15,238 bases of DNA from Lutibacter sp. (GTDB taxonomy: Bacteria; Bacteroidota; Bacteroidia; Flavobacteriales; Flavobacteriaceae), in assembly GCA_036781305.1 (NCBI GenBank), contig DAIQBF010000048.1, positions 1 through 15,238 on the forward strand, in the 5' to 3' direction. A program made the position numbers and the translations under genes. The notes beneath the pieces were generated by a model. The model was given only the letters and a program-made list of their open reading frames with translations. It had not been told where the DNA came from and made no database searches. The stretch's first letter is position 1. Every line of letters begins with the position of its first letter. Shown here in pieces: positions 1 to 14,057 of this stretch.

Positions 1-2
1 CA

Positions 3-1502
3 GAACTCGCTTTGGCAGTTGCCTATCCTTTTGCCGGAAATATTGGCGGTGGCGGGTTTATGGTTTACAGAACCCACGAAGGCAAAACCGGAGCCTTGGA
101 TTATAGAGAAAAAGCACCGCTTGCCGCTTCAAAAGACATGTATTTGGATGAAAACGGCAATATTATAGCAGAAAAAAGCACATTGGGTGCCATGGCTGTT
201 GGTGTTCCGGGAACGGTTGACGGTTTGTTTAAAGTTTACGAAAAATTTGGAAGCCTTCCTTTTTCAGAATTAATTCAGCCAGCCATTGATTTGGCCAATA
301 AAGGCGTTGTGGTAACTGAGAAGCAGGCCGAAAGATTGGCGAACTACAAACATTATTTTTCCGAAGTGAATGATGCCAAGATTTTATTGGATGCAGATTG
401 GAAAGCAGGAGACACCATTAAATATGTTAAGCTGGCCGAAACGCTGGAAAGAATTCGGGATTTGGGAAGAGACGGATTTTATAAAGGCGAAACTGCCGAG
501 ATGTTGGTAAATTATGTCCAGAAATTGGGGGGCATCATCACTAAAGAAGATTTGGAAAAATATGAAGCAAAATGGCGAAATGCCATTGAATTCAACTATA
601 AAGATTTAAAAATTATTGCGATGTCGCCGCCTTCAAGCGGCGGAATTTGCCTTGCGCAAATTTTTAAGGCAATTGAACCTTTTGACATTGCATCTTACGG
701 ACATAATTCCTTAAAATCCATTCAATTGCTTACGGAAGCGGAAAGAAGGGCTTATGCTGACAGGTCGTTTTATTTAGGTGATCCTGATTTTGTGAAAATT
801 CCAATTGACACATTAATTTCATCAAACTATATAAAAAACAGGATGGCGAATTTTTCTTGGGACAGCGCAACACCTTCTTCAACTTTAAAACACGGGAATA
901 TTGTTGGCTATGAAAGTGATGAAACAACGCACTATTCCATTGTTGACAAGTATGGAAATTCAATTTCGGCAACCACCACTTTAAATGGCGCTTATGGCTC
1001 AAAAGTATTTGTTTCTGAGGGCGGATTCTTTTTAAATAATGAAATGGACGATTTCAGTTCAAAACCGGGAGTACCCAATATGTTTGGATTAATTGGTGCT
1101 GAGGCGAATTCCATTGCGCCCGAAAAACGCATGTTAAGCTCCATGACACCCACAATTGTTGAAAAAAACAACCAGTTTTATATGTCGGTTGGTTCTCCTG
1201 GAGGATCGACTATTATAACATCTGTTTTGCAAACTATTTTAAATGTTTATGAATTTAAAATGGGCATGCAAGATGCCGTAAATGCCCCAAGATTTCACCA
1301 CCAATGGCTTCCGGATGTAATTACTATGGAACCTAATGGTTTTGACAGTTTGCTGGTAAATCAATTACAGGAAAAAGGATATCAAATTAAACAGGAAAAT
1401 ACCGTAATTTTGGGTAAAGTTGATGCTATTTTACGTTTGCCCAACGGAAAATTGGAAGGCGGCGCGGATTACAGAGGCGATGATAAAGCCGTGGGATTTT
1501 AA
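3..1502 (+). CDS. ggt: gamma-glutamyltranspeptidase, 5'-truncated by the window edge
   Basis: The frame is open from the window edge (phase of nt 3), so the TTG at 12 is only an ORF-caller start. GGT hallmarks are present: ESDETTHYSIVD (autoprocessing/nucleophile Thr), FFLNNEMDDFS and SPGGSTIITSVLQ. Stop is TAA at 1500-1502. Confidence 0.9.
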   Translation, partial: ELALAVAYPFAGNIGGGGFMVYRTHEGKTGALDYREKAPLAASKDMYLDENGNIIAEKSTLGAMAVGVPGTVDGLFKVYEKFGSLPFSELIQPAIDLANKGVVVTEKQAERLANYKHYFSEVNDAKILLDADWKAGDTIKYVKLAETLERIRDLGRDGFYKGETAEMLVNYVQKLGGIITKEDLEKYEAKWRNAIEFNYKDLKIIAMSPPSSGGICLAQIFKAIEPFDIASYGHNSLKSIQLLTEAERRAYADRSFYLGDPDFVKIPIDTLISSNYIKNRMANFSWDSATPSSTLKHGNIVGYESDETTHYSIVDKYGNSISATTTLNGAYGSKVFVSEGGFFLNNEMDDFSSKPGVPNMFGLIGAEANSIAPEKRMLSSMTPTIVEKNNQFYMSVGSPGGSTIITSVLQTILNVYEFKMGMQDAVNAPRFHHQWLPDVITMEPNGFDSLLVNQLQEKGYQIKQENTVILGKVDAILRLPNGKLEGGADYRGDDKAVGF

Positions 1503-1512
1503 AGCCCCCTAA

Positions 1513-1525
1513 CCCCCAAAGGGGG
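1513..1525 (+). terminator. short GC hairpin (ccccc-aaa-ggggg) just after the ggt stop; either a weak terminator or a copy of a small repeat
   Basis: A perfect 5-bp G/C stem with a 3-nt loop lies 11 nt after the stop. It has no proper T-tract (followed by aaattgac), so terminator function is uncertain. Confidence 0.3.
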
Positions 1526-1646
1526 AAATTGACAATTGATAAAAATGTAAATATAAAATTCATTGAAAGTATCATTAAAAAGTTAAACAAATATAAATAG
1601 TATGCTGTTGGCAGTCTCAGTTAGCAGTAAAACAATTACTCGATTC

Positions 1647-1670
1647 AACAGTTAAACAGTTAAACAGATA
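1647..1670 (+). repeat. tandem 8-mer array (aacagtta x2 + aacagata) immediately upstream of the permease start
   Basis: Three contiguous 8-bp units were read directly. A related array, aaacaatt x3, occurs at 11145-11168. Confidence 0.7.
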
Positions 1671-1674
1671 AAAA

Positions 1675-2757
1675 ATGAATTCCAATACAATAACCTACGG
1701 AATTTTAAAAGCAATAGCCATTATTACAGGCGTTTTATTGCTGCTTTACTTTTTGTATGAAGTGCAATCGGTTATCGCTTATATAGCAATTTCAATCGTT
1801 ATTGCGTTAATTGGAAGTCCAATTATTCACTTTTTAAAACGAAGGCTGAAATGCCCAAATACCTTGGCTGTTATCATCACAATACTGTTATTCTTAGGAA
1901 TTTTAGCTGGAATAATAAGTATGTTTATTCCGCTCATCATTAAGCAGGGCGAAAATTTATCATTGTTAAATATTAAAAAACTTCAAATAAATTTTGAATA
2001 TTTATTAAATCAGATTAACGATTACTTTTTAATGCGTAATATCGATATTTTAGACGAATTAAAACATGCCGATTTGTTTAAAAATGTTAAAGCTATTCCC
2101 GATTTATTCAATGCCGTTATCGGAACCATAGGAAGCTTAAGTATTGGATTGTTTTCTGTAATTTTCATCACTTTCTTCTTCATGAAAGATACGCATATTA
2201 TGGAAAATTCCTTGTATGTATGGGTTAATGACAAGAATGAGCAAAAACTGAAAAACTCTTTAATGTCAATCAACCATTTATTGTCGAGATATTTTATTGG
2301 CTTGGTTTTTCAAATTACAATTCTATTTATAATTTATACTACTTTTTTATTAGTTTTCGGCGTTGAAAACGCCATTGTAATCGCTTTTTTATGTGCATTA
2401 CTAAATTTAATACCTTATGTTGGTCCATTAATTGGAGGAATTCTAATGCTCTTTTTAACAATGAGCAGTAACTTGGCCCAAGACTTTCAAACAGAAATAT
2501 TGCCAACCACCATTTACGTGATGATTGGATATGTTTTCGCCCAACTTATTGATAATTTTTTAAGTCAACCCCTAATATTTTCAAATAGTGTAAAATCACA
2601 TCCATTGGAAATATTTTTAATAATCATCATTGGCGGAATTTTATTTGACATCACAGGAATGATCATCGCCGTGCCAACCTACACTGCCATAAAAGTAATT
2701 TTAAAAGCATTTTTGGCCGATAACAAAATTGTAAAATTAATGACCAAAGATTTATAA
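1675..2757 (+). CDS. AI-2E family transporter (PerM/UPF0118-type permease)
   Basis: The 360-aa product is strongly hydrophobic with about 8 predicted TM segments. It carries the family-typical LLNLIPYVGPLIGG segment and a C-terminal IIAVPTYTAIKVI helix. Stop is TAA. Confidence 0.8.
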   Translation: MNSNTITYGILKAIAIITGVLLLLYFLYEVQSVIAYIAISIVIALIGSPIIHFLKRRLKCPNTLAVIITILLFLGILAGIISMFIPLIIKQGENLSLLNIKKLQINFEYLLNQINDYFLMRNIDILDELKHADLFKNVKAIPDLFNAVIGTIGSLSIGLFSVIFITFFFMKDTHIMENSLYVWVNDKNEQKLKNSLMSINHLLSRYFIGLVFQITILFIIYTTFLLVFGVENAIVIAFLCALLNLIPYVGPLIGGILMLFLTMSSNLAQDFQTEILPTTIYVMIGYVFAQLIDNFLSQPLIFSNSVKSHPLEIFLIIIIGGILFDITGMIIAVPTYTAIKVILKAFLADNKIVKLMTKDL

Positions 2758-2801
2758 GTTTAACCAGATTCTTAAAACAAGAAGCTATAAAATTATATTT
2801 T

Positions 2802-2945
2802 GGGCTTGCCTGCCCTTTTGGTGGGCGTTCCCCTGCGGGTCGGGCTTTTCGTTGCAATCCGTCATTGCGGAGCGTGGCAATCTGTTGAATATATTACTTC
2901 ATAAACTCGCAACGCCGGGATTTCCTCTGCAATCCCTAACGCAGC
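2802..2945. repeat. cluster of GC-rich short repeat modules (gggcttttcgttgcaatcc / gtcattgcggagcgtggcaatc / gggatttcctctgcaatccctaacgc)
   Basis: This is a GC-rich island in an AT-rich gap. Two direct tgcaatcc modules lie around 2853-2870 and 2917-2936. An inverted copy of the gcaatccctaacgc-type motif reappears at 12536-12550 (gcgtccctaggattgc). Confidence 0.6.
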
Positions 2946-3086
2946 TTAAATTACGATAGCTGATTTACGATTTTAGAATAAGAAATCTTAGATTCTGGAT
3001 TTGGTTTTTAATATTTTACTTGCTTTTAATCATAGAATACACAAGATGATTTATGAAATTAGAATTTAAAAGACTTAAAACTTTTT

Positions 3087-3128
3087 AGCGCGATTTGCGG
3101 TTTTTATTTGCGTGCTTTGCGGTTAAAT
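3087..3128. repeat. two tandem ttRgcgNgNtttgcggtt modules (ttagcgcgatttgcggttttta / tttgcgtgctttgcggttaaa)
   Basis: Read directly. The same cttgcggttaaa tail recurs at 8242-8254, downstream of the GxxExxY cassette. Confidence 0.55.
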
Positions 3129-3189
3129 TTTTTGGTTCGGCGTTTTTTTATAATTTTTTCTTGCTTTTAGCCTCCGCTAGCGCGAGCGC

Positions 3190-3347
3190 AATGTCATTAA
3201 GTTAAGCCTTTAATGTCTTTATTTTGTCATTCCGAGGTACGAGGGATCTCATTATGCTAAGCTATTTGATGCGATTCCTCCTTTGTCGGGCACGAGCGAT
3301 AGCGAACTGGCGAAGCAATGACAAATATTCCCTTAACTTAATGACAT
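3190..3347. mobile_element. MITE-like nested-palindrome element, copy A (17-bp terminal inverted repeats, 125-bp core)
   Basis: IR-L aatgtcattaagttaag (3190-3206) pairs with IR-R cttaacttaatgacat (3332-3347), matching 16/17. The core has its own arms, tttgtcattccgaggtacgaggg (3223-3245) and gattcctcctttgtcgg...aatgacaaa. A second copy lies at 12126-12257. No ORF of its own. Confidence 0.65.
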
Positions 3348-3352
3348 CGAGC

Positions 3353-3474
3353 GCGAGCGTCCCGCTCGTGACTACAAGTAATTTTAGGGATTTTTTATTT
3401 CCTTTATTTGCAATTGTGTATAGCTCCAAAAAAATCAGGTTACTAGTGTTATTGGGTACGAGCGGGACGCTCGC
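3353..3474. repeat. perfect 17-bp inverted repeat pair (gcgagcgtcccgctcgt / acgagcgggacgctcgc) with an 88-bp spacer
   Basis: Segments 3353-3369 and 3458-3474 are exact reverse complements. A degenerate equivalent (14/17) lies at 12262-12278 / 12309-12325. Confidence 0.7.
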
Positions 3475-3532
3475 ACCAGCGAGAGGAAAAACCTCAAAAA
3501 AGTATTTCCGCTACACTCCATTACGCAAGATA

Positions 3533-3560
3533 AATTACGTTTTACGAATTGCGAATTACG
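3533..3560 (+). repeat. tandem heptamer array (aattacg, ttttacg, aattgcg, aattacg)
   Basis: Four contiguous 7-bp units were read directly. Related attacga motifs occur at about 2950-2975. Confidence 0.6.
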
Positions 3561-3664
3561 ATTTTAAAAAATGCTGTTAAGATAAATTTAAGCCTGTATA
3601 AATTAGCGATAATTTTTTTGTTTTTAATATTTAAACCTTAAATTTACAATAAAAAATTTGCATT

Positions 3665-4213
3665 ATGAAAAATGAAATTATGATTCCAGATGAAATAATT
3701 ACCAATAAAATATATTTAATCAGGGAACAAAAAGTTATGTTGGATGAAGATTTGGCTGAACTCTATAAAGTAGAAACCAAACAGTTAAAAAGACAGGTTC
3801 GCAGAAACATAGAACGTTTTCCCGAAGATTTTATGTTTGAACTCTCCAAAATTGAATTCGAAAACTTGAGGAGCCAATTTGGCACCTCAAAATGGGGAGG
3901 AACTCGTTATGCGCCTATGGCTTTTACCGAACAGGCCTGTCCTGAGCGTAGCCGAAGGAGTGTAGCTATGTTATCAAGTGTTTTAAGCAGCCAAACTGCC
4001 ATAAAAGTAAATATTCAAATTATAAGGGTATTTACAAAGATAAGACAAATGTTCACAGATAATTTAAGTTTAAAACTCGAAATTGAGGAAATAAAAAAGA
4101 AACTCTCCCATCAAAATAAAAATATTGAACTTGTATTTAGCTATTTAGATGAACTGATAGAGAAGAAAGAAAACCAAAAACCAAGAATTAAAATAGGCTA
4201 TAAAAAAGATTAA
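3665..4213 (+). CDS. ORF6N domain-containing protein (KilA-N-like DNA-binding domain plus C-terminal coiled coil)
   Basis: The N-terminal segment IYLIREQKVMLDEDLAELY..ETKQLKRQVRRNIERFPEDFMFEL...WGGTRY.P.AFTEQ...AMLSSVL.S..AIKVNIQIIRVF matches the ORF6N family pattern as I recall it. The C-terminus is Lys/Glu-rich and helical. It contains an in-frame repeat insertion (see the 3936-3959 feature). Confidence 0.8.
   Translation: MKNEIMIPDEIITNKIYLIREQKVMLDEDLAELYKVETKQLKRQVRRNIERFPEDFMFELSKIEFENLRSQFGTSKWGGTRYAPMAFTEQACPERSRRSVAMLSSVLSSQTAIKVNIQIIRVFTKIRQMFTDNLSLKLEIEEIKKKLSHQNKNIELVFSYLDELIEKKENQKPRIKIGYKKD
3936..3959 (-). repeat. 24-bp GC-rich repeat unit inserted in-frame in the ORF6N gene
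   Basis: The unit cctgtcctgagcgtagccgaagga is 62.5% GC. Removing it converts cag g..gt gta into cag ggt gta (Q-G-V), which is the expected FTEQGVAML family motif. Its 19-nt core, 3940-3958, matches the reverse complement of 6636-6654 at 17/19. Confidence 0.7.
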
Positions 4214-4225
4214 ATCTCAATAACT

Positions 4226-4774
4226 ATGTTAACTTATATTGCACTTTTGCGCGGGATAAACGTATCTGGTCACCATAAAATTAAAATGACCGAATTAAAG
4301 CAACTTTTTTTAGATTTAGGTTATAAAGAGATTTCTACCTATATACAAAGCGGAAATATAATTTTTAAGTCTAACATTAAGGAACCCATTCTTATTGAGG
4401 ACACCATAATTTCAGCCATTTCAAAACATTTTGGACACGCTATTAAGGTGCTGATATTAACCAAAAATGAATTGATTACTGTTTTTAATTCAAATCCATT
4501 TCTTGAAAAAAATCCATCTATGGATATTTCAAAATTACATGTTACATTATTAAATAAGAAACCAGATTTAGCTGGAATTCCACCTATTGAAGAACTAAAA
4601 GAAACAGGTGATGATGAATTTCAAATAATTGAAAACACCATTTATTTACATTGTCCAAATGGTTATGGAAACACAAAATTAAACAACAATTTATTTGAAA
4701 AAAAACTACAAGTTACCGCCACCACAAGAAACTGGAAAACCATTGGTAAACTCGTCGAATTAAGCAAGCAATAA
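4226..4774 (+). CDS. DUF1697 domain-containing protein
   Basis: The N-terminus YIALLRGINVSGHHKIKMTELKQLF..LGY..ISTYIQSGNIIF is the characteristic DUF1697 opening. The product is 182 aa. The gene starts 12 nt after the ORF6N stop. Confidence 0.8.
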   Translation: MLTYIALLRGINVSGHHKIKMTELKQLFLDLGYKEISTYIQSGNIIFKSNIKEPILIEDTIISAISKHFGHAIKVLILTKNELITVFNSNPFLEKNPSMDISKLHVTLLNKKPDLAGIPPIEELKETGDDEFQIIENTIYLHCPNGYGNTKLNNNLFEKKLQVTATTRNWKTIGKLVELSKQ

Positions 4775-4775
4775 T

Positions 4776-5951
4776 TTGAATCAGGAAATTTTAAATAAAG
4801 AAGTCCAAAATTTTATCAATTTAAATTTAAATTCGGATATAACAAAACTGATTTTAAAAGGAAGTCCGTTTGAACAAGTTTCGATTCAGGAAATTGCAGC
4901 GCAAATTCTGGCAAAAAACGCTTGTGAAAAAAAATTGCCCACTTGGTTTAATTCAAAAAACATTTACTATTCCAACAAACTGAATATTGAACAAACTTCT
5001 TCAGAAATTACTGCTAAGTATAAATCAGATTTGGTTTCAGGAGAAACTTTAATCGACATTACGGGTGGATTTGGCGTTGATGCTTACTTTTTTTCACAAA
5101 AAGTTAAATCAATAACACATTGTGAAATTGCCGAGGAATTGTCGAAAATTGTAATCCATAATTTCAAACGGTTAAAAGTTAAAAATGTTGAAACTCATTT
5201 TGGTGACGGCATTGAATTTATAAAAAATTCTAAAGAAAAATTCGATTGGATTTACGCAGATCCTTCGCGTAGAAATGATGCCAAAGGAAAAGTATTTCTA
5301 TTGGAAGACTGCTTGCCGAATATTCCGGAAAATCTGAATTTATTGTTTGAAAAAACGGATCATATTCTGCTTAAAGTCTCTCCTATTTTAGACATTTCAA
5401 GTGCCGTAAATGAGTTACAATTTGTAAAAGAAATTCATGTGGTTGCCATTGAAAATGAAGTGAAAGAATTGTTGTTTTTGTTGAAGAAAAATTGCACGAA
5501 AAACATTGACATTAATACAATTAACTTCAATAAAGAAGAAATCCAAAAATTTAATTTTAGCTTAAATGAAGCTATTTTACCAACTTTTTCCGAGCCAAAA
5601 AAATATCTATATGAACCCAATGCCGCAATTTTAAAAGCAGGCGCTTTTCAACAAATTTCGGCGCAGTTTAAAATTGATAAATTACACCAACATTCGCATT
5701 TATACACTTCAAATAAATTAACCGATTTTCCCGGAAGGAAATTTGAAATAAAAAATTGCATTTCTTACAACAAAAAGCAATTACAACAGTTAATTCCTTC
5801 AAAAAAAGCAAATATTACCACTCGAAATTTTCCCGAAACCGTAGCTCAAATTCGGAAAAAAACCGGATTAAAAGATGGCGGAAATCAATACCTTTTTTTT
5901 ACAACAGACATAAACAACAAGCATCTGGTGCTCATTTGTGAGAAAGTATAA
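4776..5951 (+). CDS. class I SAM-dependent methyltransferase with a C-terminal THUMP-like domain
   Basis: SAM motif I is LIDITGGFGVDAYFF and a DWIYADPSRR motif is present. The C-terminal half (LYEPNAAILKAGAF...HLYTS...FPGRKFEI) resembles the THUMP-like module of the Bacteroidota family. The TTG start is 1 nt after the DUF1697 stop, and the exact start is uncertain. Confidence 0.7.
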   Translation: MNQEILNKEVQNFINLNLNSDITKLILKGSPFEQVSIQEIAAQILAKNACEKKLPTWFNSKNIYYSNKLNIEQTSSEITAKYKSDLVSGETLIDITGGFGVDAYFFSQKVKSITHCEIAEELSKIVIHNFKRLKVKNVETHFGDGIEFIKNSKEKFDWIYADPSRRNDAKGKVFLLEDCLPNIPENLNLLFEKTDHILLKVSPILDISSAVNELQFVKEIHVVAIENEVKELLFLLKKNCTKNIDINTINFNKEEIQKFNFSLNEAILPTFSEPKKYLYEPNAAILKAGAFQQISAQFKIDKLHQHSHLYTSNKLTDFPGRKFEIKNCISYNKKQLQQLIPSKKANITTRNFPETVAQIRKKTGLKDGGNQYLFFTTDINNKHLVLICEKV

Positions 5952-6016
5952 AACTAAAAGTTGTTTTAGCAAAAATCATTAAAATTTAGTAATTTTAGCT
6001 TTTTATACTCACTAAA

Positions 6017-7654
6017 ATGGCAAATAAAAATATCCGCTCGTTATCATACAGAAAGGAATTAAATGATAACCTGTTCGAAAATATCGCAGATTTATCACAT
6101 AAAAACGCTTTAAAGTCTGATTTTCAGGAACTGGCAAAACGGTTTATGATCGATGATTCCGTGGTTGCGGCCACCGCATCTTTTTATGATTTCACTAGAG
6201 AAAGCAATCGGAACAAAAAGATTCATGTGTGCAGCGGAACGGCTTGCATGGTTGCAAATACCCAAAATAGTCTTCATAAAAATTTAGAAGATCATTTTGA
6301 CAAAGAGGAAATCGGAAATGCTGCCTGCGTTGGTCGTTGCCACACCAACAATGCGTTTATGTACAATGATAATACCTATTCGGCGCACAGCGAAAATGAA
6401 TTAAATTCAATTATCGACAATAAGAAACATCAAGAAAATAAATACAATATTGCTTGTAACACCACTCCTATTTTAACCGCTGAAATTGAAGATATTACCG
6501 CATTTTATCAATTGGCTGAAGTTCATAAAAAAAATTCGCAACAGGTAATTCAAGAAATAAAAACATCCAATTTACGCGGTCGCGGCGGTGCAGGATTCCC
6601 GTTTTGGTTTAAGTTGGATGCCGTTATAAAAGAGCCCTTCGACTCCGCTCAGGATGACACCCAAAAATACATTGTCTGCAATGCCGATGAAGGCGATCCC
6701 GGAGCATATTCGGATATGTATTTGATGGAACATCAGCCGCATAAAGTGCTTTTCGGAATGTATATGGCAGGGTTGACTGTCGGCGCAAATACGGGTGTTT
6801 TATACATCAGGGGAGAATATCCAGATTCCATCAAAATTGTGAGCAAAGCAATTTCTGAATTAAAAGAAAAAAACCTAATTAGGGATTTTAAATTCAAAAT
6901 TATTCGCGGACAAGGTTCTTATGTTTGCGGCGAGGAAACCGCTTTATTGAGTTCTATTGAAGGCTTGCGCCCGGAAGTTCGCGTTCGCCCACCCTATCCA
7001 GCACAATACGGTTTGTTTGGGAAACCAACTGTTTTGAGCAATGTGGAAACATTTGCGAACATTCATTGGATTTTAAAAAATGGCGGTGAAGCTTATGCGG
7101 CATTGGGAACAAAACAATCCACCGGAACAAAATTGGTGTCGTTGGACAGCTTTTTCAATACGCCGGGAATGTATGAAATTGAAATGGGAACGCCCTTAAA
7201 AACTGTTTTTGATGAATTTGGACATGGCTTAAAATCGGACATAAAAGCATTTCAAATTGGAGGGCCTTTGGGCGGAATTGTGCCTTCTGAGAAAATTAAG
7301 GATTTAACATTGGATTTTGAGTCGTTGAGCAGCAACGGATTTTTATTGGGTCATGCAAGTGTTGTTTCCATTCCAAAAGATTTTCCTATGATTCAATTTT
7401 TGGAACATTTAATGGAATTCACTGCGGATGAATCCTGCGGAAAATGCTATCCATGCAGAATTGGCACTTTCAGAGGCATGGAAATGCTTCAAAAAGCGCA
7501 ACAAGAAGATTATAAAATTGACCGTCAGTTATTTGATGATTTATTGGAAACCTTGGAAATAGGTTCACTTTGTGCGTTGGGTGGCGGTATTCCGTTGCCA
7601 GTAAAAAATGCATTGCAATATTTTGAGGATGAGTTGAAGGAATATTTCAAATAG
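6017..7654 (+). CDS. NAD(H)-binding diaphorase subunit of formate dehydrogenase; fused NuoE-like [2Fe-2S] and NuoF-like FMN/[4Fe-4S] domains (FdsG/FdsB-like)
   Basis: N-terminal CSGTAC...CVGRC is a thioredoxin-like 2Fe-2S pattern. [10 protein letters not shown] and [12 protein letters not shown] are the FMN/NADH motifs. [10 protein letters not shown]...GSLCALGG is the N3-type 4Fe-4S cluster motif. It sits directly upstream of the FDH alpha subunit. Confidence 0.85.
6636..6654 (+). repeat. second copy of the GC-rich repeat unit, in-frame inside the NuoF-like domain
   Basis: The reverse complement of ccttcgactccgctcagga is tcctgagcggagtcgaagg, matching 17/19 to 3940-3958. It encodes PFDSAQD in the linker between the RGRGGAGFP and [13 protein letters not shown] motifs, and that linker is longer here than I expect. 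Confidence 0.6.
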
Positions 7655-7670
7655 TATTTAAAAATTATTA

Positions 7671-7708
7671 CACAAAGACACACCGAGGAACACAAAGATT
7701 CACAAAGC
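7671..7708 (+). repeat. tandem 10-mer array (cacaaagaca caccgaggaa cacaaagatt cacaaagc), left arm flanking the GxxExxY gene
   Basis: A 10-bp periodicity was read directly. The array ends 3 nt before the ATG at 7712. It is the reverse complement of the array at 8087-8124. Confidence 0.75.
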
Positions 7709-7711
7709 AAA

Positions 7712-8083
7712 ATGACTGAAAATGAAATAGCAAGTGTTATTATTGGAAAAGCAATAGCTGTGCATAGGGAACTTGGACCGGGATTATTGGAATCTACTTA
7801 CCAAGAATGTCTTTTTTATGAGTTAAAAAATGACAATTTAAAGGTTGAAAAAGAAATAGCATTGCCAATTATTTATAAAGATATTAAATTGAATCACGGA
7901 TACAGAATTGATTTATTAGTTGAAAATAAAGTGGTTATTGAATTAAAAACAGTAGAGTTTTTAAATGATGTGCATACGGCTCAAATATTAACATACATGA
8001 AACTAGGAAATTATAAATTAGGTTTATTATTGAATTTTAATGTAAAACTTTTAAAGGAAGGTATCAAAAGATTTGTACTGTAA
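7712..8083 (+). CDS. GxxExxY protein (PD-(D/E)xK nuclease-like superfamily)
   Basis: The 123-aa product has the eponymous motif GPGLLESTYQECL and a DLLVENKVVIELK core (D...ExK-like). The size and layout are typical of the multicopy GxxExxY family. Confidence 0.85.
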   Translation: MTENEIASVIIGKAIAVHRELGPGLLESTYQECLFYELKNDNLKVEKEIALPIIYKDIKLNHGYRIDLLVENKVVIELKTVEFLNDVHTAQILTYMKLGNYKLGLLLNFNVKLLKEGIKRFVL

Positions 8084-8086
8084 AAT

Positions 8087-8124
8087 CTCTGTGAATCTTA
8101 GTGATTCTTTGTGAATCTCCGTGT
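8087..8124 (-). repeat. inverted 10-mer array (gtgaatctta gtgattcttt gtgaatctcc gtgt), right arm flanking the GxxExxY gene
   Basis: It starts 4 nt after the stop. Segment 8106-8124 (tctttgtgaatctccgtgt) matches the reverse complement of 7690-7708 (gctttgtgaatctttgtgt) at 17/19. Confidence 0.75.
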
Positions 8125-8265
8125 AATAACAACTAACTGGATATCCAAAAAGAATTAAAAAGTTATTTCACAAAGACGTAAAAAGAGAAAATACCTAAAT
8201 ACAGTACATATCTAAAATGACAATTATAAAAACTCAGAAACCTTGCGGTTAAAAAAACGAAAATC

Positions 8266-10980
8266 ATGAAAGCATTTATAAACAACATCGAACACGAATT
8301 TTTGCAAGGGGAAACCATGTTGGAATTTGTCAGAAGAATTGAAGAAAATAAAAATGCCATTCCAACGATGTGCCAGGATGACCGATTGGAAAATTTTGGT
8401 TCATGCAGGGTTTGTTCGGTTGAAGTGGCGCGTGAAAAAGACGGGTTAACAAAAACGATGGCTTCTTGCCACACCCCTATTTCTGAAGGATTGCATATTT
8501 ACCCAAACACAGAAAAAATAAAACGTCTTCGCAAAAATATTGTCGAATTGGTGCTAACCGATTATCCTGCAGATAAAATTTTTCCTTCCACAGGTAAAAA
8601 AGCAACACCTTTTCAGGAAACCATTGCTCAAATCGGAATTCCAGATATTCGTTATCCACAAGGAAAGAATCATTTAGATATTGAGCCAGATAGGGCGCAC
8701 CCTTATATAAAATCCGATTTATCACAGTGTATCAACTGTTTTAGATGCGTGAGAGCCTGTGAAGAAATCCAGGGAGAAATGATTTTGGGCATGTCAGGTC
8801 GCGGATTCGCAACCAACATTATCAAAGGATTCGACACCACTTTCAATGAATCGGCCTGCGTTTCTTGTGGCGCCTGCGTTCAAACTTGTCCGACCGAAGC
8901 TTTAACAGATAAATTCGAAACAAAAACCTTAATTCCGGATAAAACCGTTCGTACAACTTGCACTTATTGCGGCGTTGGCTGTCAGTTAGACGTTTCAGTT
9001 ATCGACGGAAAAATTAGGGGAATTCAAGCTCCTGAAACCGCCGAAGTAAATCAGGGCCATACCTGTTTAAAAGGTCGTTTTGCTTTTCAGTTTTACAACC
9101 ATCCCGATAGGTTGCGAGAACCTATGATTAAAAAGAATGGCAAATTTGAAGTGGTTACTTGGAACGAAGCCTACAATTTTATCACATCAAAATTAATTGA
9201 AATCAAAAATAAATACGGCGCAGATGCCATTGGTGGAATTTCCTCGTCAAGAGCCACCAATGAAGAGAATTATCTTATGCAAAAAATGATTCGTGTAGCC
9301 GTTGGAACCAATAATATTGATGGTTGCGCACGGGTTTGCCATGCACCTACTGCCTTCGGAATGCAGCAAGCTTTTGGAACTGGTGCTGCCACAAATTCTA
9401 TAGAAGATTTAAAACAAGCCGATGCTATTTTTATTTTCGGGGCAAATCCTGTTAAAGCCCATCCAGTAACTGGCGCTAAAATTAAGCAGGCTTTTATGAA
9501 GGGTGTCACTTCCATAGTTGTTGACCCAATCAGAACAAATTTGGCAGATTTGGCTACTCATTTTCTTCAAATCAGACCAGGAACCAATGTCGCCATTCTA
9601 AATATGATTGCACATTATATTATTAAAGAAGGATTGGTGAATCAGGATTTTATTGACACGCATACCGAAAAATATGAGGAATTTAAAGGCCATGTGGCCC
9701 ATTTGGACATGGATGAATTGGAAAAACTAACAGGTGTTTCTAAGGAATTGGTAAGAGATGCCGCCATTGCATATGCCTCAGCAGAAAGAGCGATGGAATT
9801 TCATGGCTTGGGCGTTACAGAACATTTTCAGGGAAGTAAAACGGTCATGTTATTGTCCAATTTAGCGATGATGACTGGAAATGTTGGCCGAAATGGCGTT
9901 GGCTTAAATCCGTTGCGCGGACAAAACAATGTTCAAGGTGCTGCAGATATGGGCGTACAACCACACCAAGGAGCTGGTTATATGGATATTAGCAAACCTG
10001 AAATTCAACAATATTATGCTCAAAAATACGGGATTGAAAAAATGCCGGAAAGTGTTGGATTAAAAATTCCTGAAATGCTGGATGCCGCCATCAACGGAAA
10101 AATTAAAGCGCTTTATATTGTTGGTGAAGACACTATTATGACCGACCCAAACTCTTATCACAGCATTAAAGCGTTCGGAAAATTAGAATTGATTGTGGTG
10201 CAGGAATTGTTTATGACCGCGACTTCAGAAATGGCGGATGTGGTGTTGCCGGCTTCTTCCTATTTTGAAAAAAATGGAACTTTCACCAATGGTGAGCGCC
10301 GTGTTCAACGTGTAAATAAAGTGATTGAGCCTATAGGAAACACAAAACCCGACGGACAAATTATTATAGATATTATGGGCAGATTGGGATACAACCAACC
10401 TACTGGTTTGACCTATGATGCCGCAAAAGTTATTGAAGAAATCGCGGATGTAATACCTTTTATGAAGGGGTTAACTTGGGAACGATTGGGTGAAAACGGA
10501 TTGCAATGGCCAATAAAAGAAGACGGCACCGACACTAAAATGCTGCATATCAACGGTAACTTCAAAAAAGGAATAGGCACTTTTCACCATTTTGATTTTG
10601 AAGAATCCCCAGAAATTGTTTCCCACGGAAAAATTTATCCTTTTATATTGACAACCGGTCGCGAACTAGAACATTACAATTCGGGAACCATGACGCGCAG
10701 AACCGACAATCAAATCATCTTGGGAGAAGACATTTTGGAAGTGCACCCGAAAGACGCTTTGGACAAAGGAATTAAAGACAATGAAATGGTTAGGCTGTTT
10801 TCCGACAGAGGAAGCGTTAACATTCCTATAAAGTACGCTAAATCGGTTAAAAGAGGCGTTTTAAGAACGACTTTCCATCATCCTGAAGTATTTATCAATC
10901 TGATTACAGGAAGCGTTGGAGACAAAGAAACAATGACTCCGGAATACAAAGTGGTTGCCGTTGATTTTGAAAAAGTTTGA
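8266..10980 (+). CDS. fdhF: formate dehydrogenase alpha subunit, molybdopterin-dependent, Cys-type (NAD-linked FdsA/FdhF class)
   Basis: The N-terminal 2Fe-2S ferredoxin-like region is CQDD...CRVCSVEV. 4Fe-4S motifs are CINCFRCVRACEE and CVSCGACVQTCPTEAL. The MopB cluster motif is CTYCGVGCQLDV. The active-site motif GCARVCHAPT has TGC (9337-9339) where Sec-type enzymes carry TGA. The C-terminal part is a molybdopterin dinucleotide-binding domain. Confidence 0.9.
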   Translation: MKAFINNIEHEFLQGETMLEFVRRIEENKNAIPTMCQDDRLENFGSCRVCSVEVAREKDGLTKTMASCHTPISEGLHIYPNTEKIKRLRKNIVELVLTDYPADKIFPSTGKKATPFQETIAQIGIPDIRYPQGKNHLDIEPDRAHPYIKSDLSQCINCFRCVRACEEIQGEMILGMSGRGFATNIIKGFDTTFNESACVSCGACVQTCPTEALTDKFETKTLIPDKTVRTTCTYCGVGCQLDVSVIDGKIRGIQAPETAEVNQGHTCLKGRFAFQFYNHPDRLREPMIKKNGKFEVVTWNEAYNFITSKLIEIKNKYGADAIGGISSSRATNEENYLMQKMIRVAVGTNNIDGCARVCHAPTAFGMQQAFGTGAATNSIEDLKQADAIFIFGANPVKAHPVTGAKIKQAFMKGVTSIVVDPIRTNLADLATHFLQIRPGTNVAILNMIAHYIIKEGLVNQDFIDTHTEKYEEFKGHVAHLDMDELEKLTGVSKELVRDAAIAYASAERAMEFHGLGVTEHFQGSKTVMLLSNLAMMTGNVGRNGVGLNPLRGQNNVQGAADMGVQPHQGAGYMDISKPEIQQYYAQKYGIEKMPESVGLKIPEMLDAAINGKIKALYIVGEDTIMTDPNSYHSIKAFGKLELIVVQELFMTATSEMADVVLPASSYFEKNGTFTNGERRVQRVNKVIEPIGNTKPDGQIIIDIMGRLGYNQPTGLTYDAAKVIEEIADVIPFMKGLTWERLGENGLQWPIKEDGTDTKMLHINGNFKKGIGTFHHFDFEESPEIVSHGKIYPFILTTGRELEHYNSGTMTRRTDNQIILGEDILEVHPKDALDKGIKDNEMVRLFSDRGSVNIPIKYAKSVKRGVLRTTFHHPEVFINLITGSVGDKETMTPEYKVVAVDFEKV

Positions 10981-10986
10981 ATTAAG

Positions 10987-11105
10987 GGAAGTCGGAAGTC
11001 GGAAGTTCGAAAACGTAAGTCGGAAGTCCGAAGTCGGAAGACGGAAGACGGGAGACAGAAGTCGGGAGAAAGGAGACGGAAGTCCGAAGACAGAAGTTCA
11101 AAAAA
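10987..11105 (+). repeat. degenerate tandem heptamer array, 17 units of SGAAGWC (ggaagtc-type)
   Basis: Units stay in phase every 7 nt from 10987 to 11105 (ggaagtc ggaagtc ggaagtt cgaaaac gtaagtc ggaagtc cgaagtc ggaagac ...). The array begins 7 nt after the alpha-subunit stop. Confidence 0.85.
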
Positions 11106-11144
11106 GGAATTTGTATTATGTAAAATGGATTTTGAATTTCGAGT

Positions 11145-11168
11145 AAACAATTAAACAATTAAACAATT
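11145..11168 (+). repeat. tandem 8-mer array, aaacaatt x3
   Basis: Three perfect units were read directly. They lie in the AT-rich spacer between the two inverted heptamer arrays. Confidence 0.8.
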
Positions 11169-11190
11169 TTAAATTTTGAATTTTGGATTT

Positions 11191-11260
11191 CACTTCTTTA
11201 TCCTTCAGACTTCGGACTTCGGTCTTCGGACTTCCAGCTTCTAACTTTCAACTTTACAAT
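11191..11260 (-). repeat. inverted heptamer array (tcggact-type, about 10 units) ending 9 nt before the fdhD start
   Basis: Units read cacttct ttatcct tcagact tcggact tcggtct tcggact tccagct tctaact ttcaact ttacaat. Segment 11216-11235 is the reverse complement of 11078-11097 at 19/20. Confidence 0.8.
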
Positions 11261-11269
11261 TAAAAAAGA

Positions 11270-12046
11270 ATGCAGACATTAAACTATGAAGGTTTACAAC
11301 TTACTGACGGAGTTCCGCAAAAAGTAACCGATGCTTTGGTGGTTGAGGCCGCTTTGCAAATAAACATAAATAAAGAACCCTACACAGTGGTGATGCGAAC
11401 GCCTGGAGACGATTTTGAATTGATCAGAGGCTTGCTGTATGCGGAAGATATTTATAAAGGTAAAGAAAATTTAAGCATTGAAGTCCTTGAGAAACGCGAC
11501 AACGGATTTTCAATATTAAATGCCTCAATTCCTAAAAAAAACCTCGGAAAAGGATATTTAAACAAACGTACCTTACTGTCGGTATCTTCCTGTGGTATCT
11601 GCGGAAAACAAAAATTGGAAGACATTAACCATAGCGGTGCCAAATTAATTAACAATATTATTTTCGACATTTCTAAGTTAGAAGAAATGTTTGTTGAAAT
11701 GAAATCGAAACAAGAAACTTTTGAAATATCCGGAGGCTCACATGCGGCGGCAATTTTTAATAAAAATTATGAAATAATTTCTTTAAAAGAAGACATTGGA
11801 AGACATAATGCAGTAGATAAAGTGGTTGGCGAATTGTTAAATTCAAATCAATTAAAGGAATCTTTTGTGATGCTTGTGAGCGGCAGGGTTTCCTATGAAA
11901 TTATTTCCAAAGCATTTATCGCTAAAATCCCAATTGTGGTGGCAGTGTCAGCCTGCTCCTCTTTATCTGTAGATTTTGCAAAAGAATTCGGTATTTGTCT
12001 GATTGGATTTTCAAGAGGCAACAAAGCTACTGTTTATGCTAAGTAA
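11270..12046 (+). CDS. fdhD: formate dehydrogenase accessory sulfurtransferase FdhD
   Basis: The 258-aa product has the SVSSCGICGK cysteine loop and the GRHNAVDKVVG motif. It lies downstream of the FDH alpha subunit. Confidence 0.9.
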   Translation: MQTLNYEGLQLTDGVPQKVTDALVVEAALQININKEPYTVVMRTPGDDFELIRGLLYAEDIYKGKENLSIEVLEKRDNGFSILNASIPKKNLGKGYLNKRTLLSVSSCGICGKQKLEDINHSGAKLINNIIFDISKLEEMFVEMKSKQETFEISGGSHAAAIFNKNYEIISLKEDIGRHNAVDKVVGELLNSNQLKESFVMLVSGRVSYEIISKAFIAKIPIVVAVSACSSLSVDFAKEFGICLIGFSRGNKATVYAK

Positions 12047-12067
12047 GTTGGAAAGTTAAAAAATAGA

Positions 12068-12088
12068 CCGAAGTCCGAAGTCCGAAGT
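12068..12088 (+). repeat. heptamer array, ccgaagt x3 (perfect), just after the fdhD stop
   Basis: Three perfect units were read directly. They are complementary to 11209-11222 (acttcggacttcgg) upstream of fdhD. Confidence 0.8.
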
Positions 12089-12125
12089 TCATTTCTAGAA
12101 TCAAATCAAACTCAATCGCTAGCGC

Positions 12126-12257
12126 AATGTCATTAAGTTAAGGGAATATTTGTCATTCCGACAAAGGAGGAATCGCATTAAATAGCTTAACATGATGTGA
12201 TTCCTCGTACCTCGGAATGACAAAATAAAGACGTTAAAGTCTTAACTTAATGACATT
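12126..12257. mobile_element. MITE-like nested-palindrome element, copy B (perfect 17-bp terminal inverted repeats, 98-bp core inverted relative to copy A)
   Basis: IR-L aatgtcattaagttaag (12126-12142) and IR-R cttaacttaatgacatt (12241-12257) are perfect. The core 12143-12240 is the reverse complement of the copy-A core minus a 27-bp segment. The outer flanks (cgctagcgc on the left, gagcgcgagcNtccNgctcgtgact on the right) have the same orientation as in copy A. Confidence 0.65.
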
Positions 12258-12356
12258 GAGCGCGAGCTTCCAGCTCGTGACTGCGCAAATTTAACAGCTA
12301 ACAAAAGCACGAGCGTGACGCTCGCGCCAGTCACCAGTGTGAGGGTTAAACCTAAG

Positions 12357-12377
12357 ATCCCGCTGAAAAAGCGGGAT
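12357..12377 (+). repeat. hairpin atcccgc-tgaaaaa-gcgggat (small palindromic repeat unit or weak terminator)
   Basis: A 7-bp GC-rich stem with a 7-nt loop and no following T-tract. Confidence 0.35.
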
Positions 12378-12782
12378 TAGTTCAAATTCAATTCTTAGTG
12401 CGTCTTATAGACTTCTCAAAATTGAGTTTCACTAACAAACTACACGGTTTTATAAACAAAATGCATCTTTTTTATAATATTTAGCAAAATATGTTGTGTA
12501 TCCGAAAACTTTATTTTACATTTGCTGCATAAGAGCGTCCCTAGGATTGCAAATTTTTACGGAGAGGGTTTGCAATTAGTTGATTTTCACGATAAAAATA
12601 CCCGTTTTTATCGCTTAAAAATCGATTTTAGCTTTTAAAATCTCCAAAATAGAAGTTTTATTTGGTAAAATTTTGAAGTATTTGAACTTTTTTACTTACG
12701 GCTCATGCCTTGTAAAATAAGGGAAAAATAGCTTTTAGAACCCCTTTTTTCTAAAATTTTTTAGAATTTAGGAGGGTTTTTA

Positions 12783-12813
12783 TTGTCTGTATGTAAGTTT
12801 TATTATATATTTG
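12783..12813 (+). promoter_or_regulatory. Bacteroidota-type promoter candidate: TTG-N20-TATATTTG
   Basis: The -7 box tatatttg (12806-12813) fits TAnnTTTG exactly. A TTG lies at 12783-12785. The box ends 33 nt before the ATG at 12847. A 14-nt string, tattatatatttga, is shared with the promoter candidate at 13084-13097. Confidence 0.5.
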
Positions 12814-12846
12814 ATGTTCTTACTAATCATTTAATTCTTACTAAAA

Positions 12847-12978
12847 ATGAAAAAATTGAAATTAATTTTCGGATTGCTACTTGTAGCAGGGTTCATAGCT
12901 ATAACAGTTTTAAGCTACACATCTAAAGATAGCCAAGCTATCGCTAAAAAGGATACATATATTCCAAGAAACGGATAA
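12847..12978 (+). CDS. small hypothetical secreted or membrane-anchored peptide (43 aa)
   Basis: The product is MKKLKLIFGLLLVAGFIAITVLSYTSKDSQAIAKKDTYIPRNG: a Lys-rich N-terminus, a hydrophobic helix, then a short polar tail. A consensus -7 box precedes it and a hairpin terminator follows it. It falls below the ORF-track size cutoff and I recognise no homology. Confidence 0.4.
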   Translation: MKKLKLIFGLLLVAGFIAITVLSYTSKDSQAIAKKDTYIPRNG

Positions 12979-13020
12979 TAATTATCCAGAGCAAACATTT
13001 CTATATCTTAAAATTAGGTA

Positions 13021-13051
13021 AAACCACAATAAGTAATTTATTGTGGTTTTT
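13021..13051 (+). terminator. rho-independent terminator-like hairpin
   Basis: The stem aaaccacaataa (13021-13032) pairs perfectly over 12 bp with ttattgtggttt (13038-13049), with loop gtaat. T residues follow. It lies 43 nt after the small-ORF stop. Confidence 0.55.
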
Positions 13052-13065
13052 GAGCTACAATAGAG

Positions 13066-13096
13066 TTGTATATTAAAATATATTATTATATATTTG
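13066..13096 (+). promoter_or_regulatory. Bacteroidota-type promoter candidate: TTG-N20-TATATTTG
   Basis: The -7 box tatatttg (13089-13096) and a TTG at 13066-13068 have the same 20-nt spacing as the 12783-12813 candidate. The box ends 26 nt before the ATG at 13123. Confidence 0.5.
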
Positions 13097-13122
13097 AAAA
13101 AATAACCCCTATTAATTAATTA

Positions 13123-13599
13123 ATGAAAAATAACAAAAGAACATCATTATTGATAAGTAGTTTAATAATTTTACTTATAATATCAACCCCATATCTTTTA
13201 TACATGTACAGAAGTTTTGACCCTGATGCTCAAAACATAATAACTTTTTTTGGTACTTTAAAAGCGGGTTATTACCCAAATGTTCAAACTTATATTTACT
13301 CTTTTTTCGCTAAATTTGTCCCATTGTTGCTTCTTATTATTTGGTTTATCACCAACAAACATTGGTGGGTACATGCACTTAGCATTCCCATTTCCGTATA
13401 TTTGTTCCAATTAATTTCAATTATTAATGATAGTGAGCAATATTATGATGAAGTAGAATTTATTTATGCTGTGCCAATTACAGTTGTAGTGATGGTCATT
13501 CTCTATTTTATAAGAAGCAAAATTTCCATTTACATACAGGCAGTAGATTTAAAAAAGGAAATGGACGAGAACATGAAAACACCCAAAAAGTTTGGCTAA
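13123..13599 (+). CDS. hypothetical integral membrane protein (158 aa, about 4 TM)
   Basis: Hydrophobic segments are LLISSLIILLIISTPYLLY, FVPLLLLIIWFI, ALSIPISVYLFQLISII and AVPITVVVMVILYFI, followed by a charged C-terminal tail. I recognise no family. The codon usage is very AT-rich. Confidence 0.55.
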   Translation: MKNNKRTSLLISSLIILLIISTPYLLYMYRSFDPDAQNIITFFGTLKAGYYPNVQTYIYSFFAKFVPLLLLIIWFITNKHWWVHALSIPISVYLFQLISIINDSEQYYDEVEFIYAVPITVVVMVILYFIRSKISIYIQAVDLKKEMDENMKTPKKFG

Positions 13600-13685
13600 A
13601 AACCCCTGACCCAAAATAACCCCAAAATTTTTAACAATTAATTAATTATTATTTGTTCCCCCCACAAATATTTGGAGTTTAAATA

Positions 13686-13829
13686 ATGAAAAAAGATTTA
13701 GATGATTTTGCCTTTCTATTAGAGCAGAGCGAAAATAAAATGGCCTTGCTTGATAAAAAATTAGCCTTTTTAAATAAATTATTGGTAGTTATAGGTATTG
13801 TTATGTTACTTTTTTGCATTTATAAATGA
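13686..13829 (+). CDS. small hypothetical tail-anchored membrane peptide (47 aa)
   Basis: The product is MKKDLDDFAFLLEQSENKMALLDKKLAFLNKLLVVIGIVMLLFCIYK: an amphipathic N-terminal helix and a C-terminal TM segment. It falls below the ORF-track cutoff and coding status is unproven. Confidence 0.3.
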   Translation: MKKDLDDFAFLLEQSENKMALLDKKLAFLNKLLVVIGIVMLLFCIYK

Positions 13830-13913
13830 TTTCGACAATCAAACTCCTTCAAGATAATATTTCTACAAAAAAATTAATAAAGTAACCTCTAATTCCCCTG
13901 CTCTTTTTCACCC

Positions 13914-13928
13914 CTGATTATTAATCAG
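13914..13928. promoter_or_regulatory. perfect 15-bp palindrome CTGATTA-T-TAATCAG (candidate dimeric regulator operator)
   Basis: Two 7-bp arms are exact reverse complements around a central T. It lies about 80 bp upstream of the -7-like box at 14010-14017 and 130 bp upstream of the DUF2249 start. Confidence 0.3.
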
Positions 13929-14017: not shown

Positions 14018-14057
14018 CATTATAAATAATATTAAACAGTCATAAAAATTAATAATT

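Follow-up and report, generated by a model that had tools for sequence, protein, structure and literature searches.

A probable REP-like repeat of 24 nt in a linker of a Lutibacter NuoE-NuoF fusion gene and its copies in other bacteria

Two host genes and two copies of a 24-nt unit

The stretch of DNA analyzed here, in the following called the window, comprises 15,238 nucleotides from a Lutibacter sp. of the Flavobacteriaceae (assembly GCA_036781305.1, contig DAIQBF010000048.1, positions 1 to 15,238). It belongs to a metagenome scaffold whose nearest named protein relatives come from Lutibacter. It is AT-rich, with roughly 23-45% G+C (in 300-nt windows), and contains two genes for unrelated proteins, each of which harbors one copy of a short GC-rich sequence. 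We consider it likely that the segment 6636-6659, located within a NuoF-like gene, is a copy of a 24-nt GC-rich dispersed repeat resembling the repetitive extragenic palindromes (REPs), which was inserted into a variable linker of a NuoE-NuoF fusion and spreads by copying on the DNA level. The two host genes and the two copies are as follows:

6017..7654, + strand: host gene 1, a NuoE-NuoF fusion of 545 aa (Pfam matches, translation, matches to solved structures)
3665..4213, + strand: host gene 2, an ORF6N-domain protein of 182 aa (Pfam; homologues typically have 174 aa)
6636..6659, + strand: 24-nt repeat unit, copy 1, CCTTCGACTCCGCTCAGGATGACA, inside the NuoF-like gene; 43 bits on the weight matrix
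3935..3958, - strand: 24-nt repeat unit, copy 2; the - strand reads CCTTCGGCTACGCTCAGGACAGGC, tail class CAGGC; 41 bits

The product of host gene 1 displays three Pfam domains, a 2Fe-2S thioredoxin-like domain, Complex1_51K and NADH_4Fe-4S, and the solved relatives matching it best are HydB, HoxF, NfnB, FdsB and Nqo1. Both host open reading frames (ORFs) are unbroken across their inserts, and both copies are presumably translated.

The two copies share the formula CC + TTCGRCTNCGCTCA + GGAYRRSN. The copy at 6636-6659 starts with CC, continues with TTCGACTCCGCTCA, the conserved core of 14 nt, and with GGAT, and has GACA as its tail; on the opposite, G-rich strand it reads TGTC-ATCC-TGAGCGGAGTCGAA-GG. 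This copy is translated as (P)FDSAQDD(T) in the NuoF-like ORF, and the copy at 3935-3958 as ACPERSRR(S) on the + strand of the ORF6N gene, in the context AFTEQ-ACPERSRRS-VAMLSS.

A first-pass annotation made from the letters of the window had proposed one repeat family present in both genes in opposite orientation, and this is borne out. The reverse complement of 6636-6654, TCCTGAGCGGAGTCGAAGG, is identical to 3940-3958, TCCTGAGCGTAGCCGAAGG, at 17 of 19 positions, whereas none of 200 dinucleotide-preserving shuffles gave a match at up to three mismatches. The core CTGAGCN5CGAAG occurs at these two sites of the window and at no others. A weight matrix built from 299 copies found elsewhere gave 43 and 41 bits for the two sites, compared to a shuffle maximum of 13, and its scan of the window returned no third copy. 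The similarity of the two sites is not due to chance. The annotation had also called the NuoF-like copy a local GC island, in agreement with the 58% G+C of the unit (direct count) against about 37-40% in the surrounding region. It had placed the repeat at 6635-6662; a repeat is indeed present there, and its exact bounds are 6636-6659.

Alleles at the two insertion sites

Within the NuoF-like protein the insert PFDSAQDD lies between GFPFWFKLD and a 13-residue motif. This places it in the linker between the glycine loop binding flavin mononucleotide (FMN) and the 13-residue motif, and the flanking motifs are intact. Among the 120 closest protein clusters, with identities of 80-100%, this linker occurs in five states:

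Empty, 72 clusters: AVIKE[TP]N[TA]Q and variants
Form A, 33 clusters: 6 aa longer
Form B, 11 clusters: ISAPLNNLAKETQ and variants, 6 aa longer
A+B, 3 clusters: KEPFDS-ISTTLNNH-AQDDTQ, nested
BB, 1 cluster: ISAPLNNPISAPLNN..., duplicated B

The linker had been noticed as longer than usual, and it does exceed that of 72 of the 120 orthologue clusters and of the solved homologues by six residues; in the alignments to 9bov_B and 8oh5_B the six-residue gap falls exactly at the insert. An alignment of relatives had been suggested for locating the indel. With a short linker in 72 of the 120 closest clusters, it speaks against the long linker being ancestral, and since the solved homologues share the short length, the short linker is regarded as the ancestral state.

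On the DNA level the empty allele of one orthologue (locus L371; L numbers denote loci retrieved from other genomes) reads GAAC-CAAATA-CCCAA and the filled allele GAAC-CCTTCGACTCCGCTCAGGATGACA-CCCAA. The hexamer CAAATA is found at the site in two orthologues without the unit, L371 and L002. At this site of the window a complete 24-nt unit has replaced the 6 nt CAAATA, and the net gain is 18 nt.

A second unit type, B, either nested in A or left over from nesting, is carried by 15 of the 120 clusters. Form B holds the core TTCGGCTCCGCTCA in another reading frame than form A, encoding SAPLNN instead of FDSAQD. In the A+B alleles, as in L004, the 24-nt B unit TATTTCGACTACGCTCAATAACCA is found within the A core, between TTCGACTC and CGCTCAG, and what the B-only alleles retain of A is its 3' half, GCTCAGGGT in L005. 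Judged from their sequence, the B-only alleles look like nested alleles which have lost the 5' half of A. In a neighbor-joining tree the allele states are patchy at shallow depth, and about half of the A alleles are nearest to an empty allele.

The gene contains one more polymorphic landing site:

6413..6440, + strand: second landing site, NuoE-NuoF linker; empty in the window; residues ~133-141, IIDNKKHQE

Here, some relatives have a degenerate unit that lies in the reverse direction and reads SLRAQSRS or KNVSSSAVE (alignment columns 142-144). The DNA of L004 at this site is TGTCAGTTCGAGCGCAGTCGAGAA, and in the relatives 24 nt are present in place of 15 nt.

At the ORF6N site the orthologues of L002 and L006 read GAACAAG|GAGTTGCA, and the window is longer by exactly 24 bases there. 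Among the 120 closest ORF6N clusters, 118 are without the insert and show TEQ-G-VAML or a close flank variant, in which G replaces ACPERSRRS; the insert is present in just two clusters, at 93% identity. As a side observation, the ORF6N orthologue of the empty-site relative L002 (8017-8541) carries an in-frame stop, TAA where AELYKVET has a TAT codon, and gene calling splits it in two; it is thus a probable pseudogene. L003 and L005 have no ORF6N gene.

By comparison with their orthologues, both the NuoF-like and the ORF6N copy are derived insertions. The view of two in-frame landings of one unit in unrelated proteins holds, as both inserts are absent from close orthologues and recur elsewhere in other phyla. 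The opposite explanation is an ancestral long linker with short forms arising by deletion, combined with a GC-rich coincidence at the ORF6N gene. The wide spread of the A alleles over the protein tree is what repeated loss could give. The short length in solved outgroups and in 72 of the 120 clusters contradicts it, as does the match of a full 24-nt unit with unselected flanks to hundreds of copies in unrelated genomes. A coincidence is likewise at odds with shuffles that give no match and with an ORF6N copy confined to 2 of 120 clusters. Taken together, we regard this explanation as highly improbable.

Copies in other genomes and published repeat families

Further copies were collected with the pattern TTCGRCTNCGCTCAGGA, using one genome per species, which gave at least 120 loci; scans of viral contigs with a 17-mer and of metagenome contigs with the B type also gave at least 120 each. 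Host phyla among the matches listed are Planctomycetota, Acidobacteriota, Chloroflexota, the candidate phyla radiation (CPR) and Bacteroidota, and further hosts among them are Alpha- and Gammaproteobacteria, Nitrospirota, Verrucomicrobiota, Firmicutes and Nostoc. Since a few hundred occurrences of such a 17-mer are expected by chance in 596 Gb, the bare match count proves nothing and the evidence is carried by the flanks. Here, the two bases 5' of the search pattern, which were unspecified in the search, are C in 96% and 93% of the copies, and the tails at the 3' side are of a few classes only (TGACA, CAGGC and TAAAC). Core and flanks of the window unit recur in more than 300 copies in other genomes.

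The length of the unit, which amounts to 2 + 14 + 8 nt in the register used, is seen at several places. Tandem arrays with an exact 24-nt period are present in L028, L256, L260 and L306, a (CCTTCAT)n array in L037 is broken by exactly 24 nt, and the ORF6N insertion as well as the nested B unit are exact 24-nt gains. In the BipA protein of a Paceibacterota metagenome-assembled genome (MAG; L098) the unit reads QQ-SFDSAQDK-KGE and leaves an exact 8-residue gap against the E. coli BipA structures 8ewh_A and 5a9v_A.

The B type has a TAT...ATA stem and the same tail classes as A. It is rare in viral contigs, with 3 matches. Often it is nested in other hairpin modules, as in GGATTGCTTCGT[unit]CCTCGCAATGAC or CCTGTCCTGAG[unit]C...CGAAGG, or it lies at the center of longer palindromes. 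Nested copies of the unit are found in L004, L284, L314 and others.

The occurrence of the same short sequence in MAGs of many phyla might point to an assembly or sequencing artefact, e.g., an adapter-like sequence in metagenome contigs. This can practically be dismissed, as genomes of isolates contain the unit too (Flavobacterium tructae, Pedobacter spp., Henriciella marina and Hyphomonas), the filled NuoF-like allele is kept in many independent assemblies, the copies vary with compensatory changes in the stem, and genic copies always lie in an open frame.

Most copies are extragenic. In low-GC loci 15 of 66 units (23%) lie in ORFs of at least 110 aa, which cover 78% of the sequence, and the other 51 are intergenic; of the B-type units 20 of 122 are inside long ORFs. 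Both orientations are present, and no bias relative to flanking genes was found in the low-GC loci. Besides BipA, in-frame hosts are a 1158-aa MeaB-mutase fusion of Flavobacterium tructae, a GspE-like ATPase, a TonB-dependent receptor and proteins with the C-terminal domain of the type IX secretion system (T9SS). The GspE-like ORF, from a Nitrospirae MAG (L017), holds two adjacent units in opposite orientation at about residue 497 in its C-terminal cysteine-rich region (GKAC-PFDSAQDRP-ERSRRSEV-KAGCYAC).

By direct translation the six frames of the unit are PSTPLRMT, LRLRSG*, FDSAQDD, CHPERSRR, VILSGVEG and SS*, and the LRLRSG* frame opens to LRLRSGQA with a CAGGC tail, so that four or five of the six are free of stops. 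The reading frame is preserved because the unit equals eight codons, together with selection against frames containing a stop. The first-pass annotation had suggested a family which tolerates, or is selected for, frame-preserving insertion. Tolerance is supported by in-frame copies in unrelated proteins of several phyla, whereas the figures of 23% of low-GC units within ORFs against 78% ORF coverage give no evidence of favored insertion into genes.

A selected function of the insert, either as a protein loop near the FMN/NADH site or as a regulatory or protein-binding nucleic acid, would be in line with the well-conserved peptide PFDSAQDD of form A in 33 of 120 clusters and with the high conservation of the core across phyla. 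This explanation is very unlikely, as alleles at the same site are read in another frame (SAPLNN) or have no insert, the same unit yields unrelated peptides in unrelated proteins, orientation bias relative to genes is absent and Rfam holds no match. The Rfam searches, at gathering or permissive thresholds, covered the window, the canonical copies in 17 loci and, permissively, a tandem array. Since alleles of one site use different frames (FDSAQD, SAPLNN) or are empty, the NuoF-like insert would rather be a selectively tolerated passenger, probably neutral and without an enzymatic role.

Some copies have neighbors that deserve mention on their own. A gammaproteobacterial MAG (L119) contains a group II intron at 2816-4624 (Rfam matches to D1-D4 and domain V/VI) with units at 4705 and 5279, i.e., about 80 nt and about 650 nt downstream of it. 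In a Pedobacter locus (L109) copies of the Flavo-1 RNA (RF01705) at 5168-5259 and 5450-5541 are found on either side of a unit at 5294. The viral contigs L169, L179, L187, L197 and L236 share a unit subfamily whose stem is (A/G)TGC...GCAT and whose tail is GAGC; these contigs are related, their shared ORFs look like phage structural proteins, and the units may occupy a homologous position in a prophage or an element resembling a gene transfer agent. A link to small GIY-YIG nuclease genes was discarded, since such a gene is present in just 2 of 120 loci and is not next to a unit in either. Resemblances seen by eye to the tRNA T-arm, the hammerhead ribozyme, the K-turn, the 5' end of 16S rRNA, CsrA or Shine-Dalgarno sites and 454/Ion adapters turned out to be no real matches.

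Among known repeats, the REP and REPIN sequences mobilized by RAYTs carry a GTAG tag and flank an IS200/IS605-like RAYT gene; the 24-nt unit has neither this tag nor a recurrent transposase-like neighbor in about 2 Mb of loci. The Rickettsia palindromic elements (RPE) were reportedly described by Ogata and colleagues in 2000 as lying in-frame in functional genes, with RPE-1 of roughly 100-150 bp and restricted to Rickettsia. The unit is similarly found in-frame in protein genes, tolerated in loops and polymorphic between relatives, but it has 24 nt and occurs in many phyla. In fungal mitochondria, mobile GC clusters or double-hairpin elements are GC-rich hairpins which spread in AT-rich genomes, sometimes in-frame. 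These differ in being organellar, longer and unrelated in sequence, and some are bypassed in translation. The features of miniature inverted-repeat transposable elements (terminal inverted repeats of 15-30 bp, a target-site duplication and a length of 70-300 bp) are also missing in a 24-nt unit with a 4-5 bp stem and no duplication.

A closer resemblance in size exists to the small dispersed repeats (SDRs) of Nostocaceae. In an article of 2008 (Genome Res 18:1484), Elhai and colleagues are said to have described SDR4-6 as 21-27 nt long and nesting in repeats and heptamer arrays, and SDR5 as inserting into HIP1. They are not known to have an associated transposase. SDRs are mentioned in PMC4390886 and PMC5861425, and the latter reports them in Nostocaceae only. 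The 24-nt unit falls within the size range, shows presence and absence between relatives and occurs nested and in heptamer arrays (L037, L079). Compared by description, it differs in not being confined to Nostocaceae, though two Nostoc MAGs contain it (L088, L107).

The superfamily of CGTC/TGTC-tagged REPs (Di Nocera, De Gregorio, Rocco 2013, PMC3733652) includes dRS3 of Neisseria and RPE-4 and RPE-6 of Rickettsia. According to this article, Bacteroidetes is one of the five phyla in which its members occur. They are high-copy and mainly extragenic, with documented intragenic copies, and have an unpaired CGTC, TGTC or CCTC tag at one end of the hairpin, 8-9 bp stems often starting with AT, loops of 4-5 nt and a CCA tail, and no dedicated transposase is identified there. 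The 24-nt unit shares the TGTC tag, its G-rich strand reading TGTC-ATCC-TGAG in the NuoF-like copy and (C)TGTCC-TGAG in the ORF6N copy, and is likewise dispersed and mainly extragenic with some genic copies. In contrast, it has 4-5 Watson-Crick pairs around a nearly invariant core of 12-14 nt, so that the stem would reach eight pairs solely if tandem G.A pairs are counted, and it combines a fixed length of 24 nt with several alternative tails. The tails GGATGACA (30 copies) and GGATGACG (17 copies) are among the commonest in a core-based census, in which CAGGC and TAAAC are also found, and ACCA is seen in the B-type scan. Comparing the families by description and peptides, the intragenic peptides in Additional file 3 of PMC3733652, as given in that file, showed no match to the peptides of the unit.

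In the literature searched, the 14-mer strings and the encoded peptides gave no match and keyword searches gave nothing specific. The unit is not assigned to any single published family. REP-like repeats lying in-frame in genes are already known. Three features go beyond the published descriptions consulted: the unit has a fixed length of eight codons, its core stays constant from phylum to phylum, and one site shows an allelic series (empty, A, A+B, B, BB).

Fold, spread and surroundings of the unit

Where the core is exact (308 copies), the four bases on its two sides covary, and the four positions of this stem give higher Watson-Crick counts than any of 300 shuffles. The pairs seen include ATCC/GGAT, which is the commonest, GTCC/GGAC, ACAC/GTGT, ATGC/GCAT, TTAT/ATAA, ACCC/GGGT, GGTC/GACT and TGGC/GCCA. 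If the T-A pair is included, the stem consists of five Watson-Crick pairs with the 12-nt loop GAGCGNAGTCGA. The sole free position of the core is the N of GNA, where A is the commonest base (66 of 128).

Tandem sheared G.A pairs form in DNA in the context 5'-YGAR-3', and d(GCGNAGC) minihairpins with a GNA triloop are said, following Hirao, Yoshizawa and colleagues, to be very stable. Written as TGTC-stem-TGAGCGNAGYCGAA-stem', the G-rich unit would have 4-5 Watson-Crick pairs flanking a core in which TGAG opposite CGAA may form the tandem sheared G.A pairs and GCGNAG(C/T) the GNA-triloop minihairpin. The G-rich strand, TGTC-ATCC-T-GA-GCGNAGY-C-GA-A-GGAT, is thus predicted to fold as a compact single-strand hairpin of eight pairs. 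This fold, if true, would explain why the same core is found across phyla without a conserved protein partner.

Regarding the spread of the unit, the lack of an orientation bias, of an Rfam family and of a recurrent neighboring gene suggests that the 24-nt module is multiplied on the DNA level, probably by a copy-and-paste process acting in trans or via replication and repair functions of the host. An all-vs-all clustering of 5150 ORFs from 240 loci, about 2 Mb in total, revealed no recurrent transposase-like neighbor; what is shared are phage structural proteins from the related viral contigs and a generic ABC ATPase. At the filled and empty junctions of the ORF6N and NuoF-like sites no target-site duplication was found. 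Some junctions have a few bases in common with the unit end; these are TCCTT where the ORF6N copy was inserted and CCTTC in the array of L037.

One explanation is a miniature transposon moved by a dedicated enzyme acting in trans, e.g., an IS200/IS605-type tyrosine (HUH) transposase like the RAYTs, which would recognize a hairpin in single-stranded DNA. The TGTC/CGTC tag, the covarying stem and the conserved loop resemble the tagged REPs as characterized in PMC3733652, the absence of a target-site duplication is expected of single-strand transposition, and insertions into the loops of other hairpins fit as well. In the clustering described above, however, no recurrent transposase-like ORF is near the units, although a distant single-copy gene would be missed. 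Moreover, CGTC REPs are reported without a dedicated transposase in PMC3733652, and an identical core across phyla needs an equally conserved specificity, unlike the species-specific pairs of REP and RAYT. We regard a dedicated enzyme as possible, though on balance doubtful.

Alternatively, no element-specific mobility may exist, and the copies would arise by templated repair or by template switching during replication between copies, followed by homologous recombination among strains. The microhomologies TCCTT and CCTTC, the landings that replace 6 and 15 nt by 24 nt, the absence of a partner gene and the patchy allele states at shallow tree depth are in line with it, and the tandem 24-nt arrays fit replication slippage. 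The shared junction bases together with the replacement landings fit such a template-switch or repair route without proving it. Yet copying exactly 24 nt every time is not obviously expected, and nesting at defined loop positions as well as uniformity across phyla look like a defined module. This route overlaps with the preferred explanation of a REP-like module copied on the DNA level and differs mainly by denying a specific recognition step. As a separate account it is conceivable, with the doubts outweighing the support.

The most far-reaching version of the preferred explanation takes the unit as an undescribed, pan-bacterial, self-propagating module of 24 nt which has no dedicated transposase, inserts in loops, arrays and genes, and whose core is kept by the physics of an unusually stable single-stranded DNA fold; in genes, its length would allow it to remain as eight additional residues. 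We put this forward tentatively and consider it rather unlikely. If it were true, the unit would be among the smallest mobile elements known.

Several points weigh against the explanation by a REP-like repeat copied into the linker. Neither an enzyme nor a mechanism of spread was found in the loci analyzed. Two of the landings in the NuoF-like gene are replacements (24 for 6 nt and 24 for 15 nt) and not clean insertions, and need an extra deletion step or a patch-replacement mechanism. The closest pair of a filled and an empty allele is only 96% identical in protein and 92% in DNA, and the patchy allele states could reflect repeated gain and loss or homologous recombination among strains. By nearest-neighbor DNA folding the unit is no more stable than shuffles (z about 0), and the pairs of the putative G.A/GNA fold are not scored by it. 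Most counts obtained with the loop pattern are lower bounds (at least 120), and hence so are copy number and taxonomic range. Finally, an AlphaFold2 model built with 47 close homologues is poor (mean pLDDT 59.9, residues 181-212 below 50) and does not show solvent exposure of the loop.

With these points in mind, the 24-nt unit is one identified origin of 8-residue indels in conserved proteins of bacteria, such as the NuoF-type flavoprotein, BipA, the mutase fusion and the secretion ATPase. In-frame inserts of this kind can lead alignments, phylogenies and structure predictions astray, and loops which tolerate insertion are marked by them. The unit extends the theme of REP, RPE and SDR elements by a length divisible by three and an identical core in different phyla, and it raises the question whether a 24-nt hairpin can spread by host functions alone. 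Here, a single Lutibacter site, with alleles that are empty, filled, nested or duplicated, offers a natural series for studying the rules of insertion.

Downstream of host gene 1 the window contains two genes assigned by Pfam:

8266-10980: molybdopterin formate-dehydrogenase-like gene, 904 aa
11270-12046: fdhD

Together with the domains and solved relatives of the NuoE-NuoF fusion, they make the earlier label of a formate dehydrogenase diaphorase subunit a reasonable one. Between the NuoF-like and the formate-dehydrogenase-like gene a 123-aa PD-(D/E)XK_3 (PF13366) gene is located at 7712-8083, bracketed by 43-nt inverted repeats of 77% identity (7665-7707 and 8087-8129). It is found at the same position in L002-L006, L370 and L371 and not in L372, and the left arm of the bracketing repeat was recovered in L002, L003 and L005.

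Two composite GC-rich repeat blocks, 3179-3373 and 12117-12282, are located on either side of the ~8.9-kb stretch which runs from ORF6N over the formate dehydrogenase genes to fdhD, each in a long intergenic region. They are inverted to each other over 111 nt at 91%, share in addition a 42-nt direct copy at 93%, and have a related block in L006 (2422-2556). Small GTC-tagged hairpin modules are present at 2862-2883, 3226-3248, 12151-12173 and 12196-12222. Their loops, GTCATTGCGGAGCGTGGCAATC, GTCATTCCGAGGTACGAGGGATC and GTCATTCCGACAAAGGAGGAATC, differ from that of the 24-nt unit and the architecture is alike; as they resemble dRS3 and CGTC-1-type REPs, the modules may together form a superfamily. 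On both sides of fdhD lie arrays of a heptamer in tandem, (GGAAGTC)n or the reverse complement of it, at 10987-11137, 11190-11254 and 12060-12091. Similar arrays occur in L006, and heptamer arrays of this sort are landing sites for the 24-nt unit in other genomes (L037, L079).

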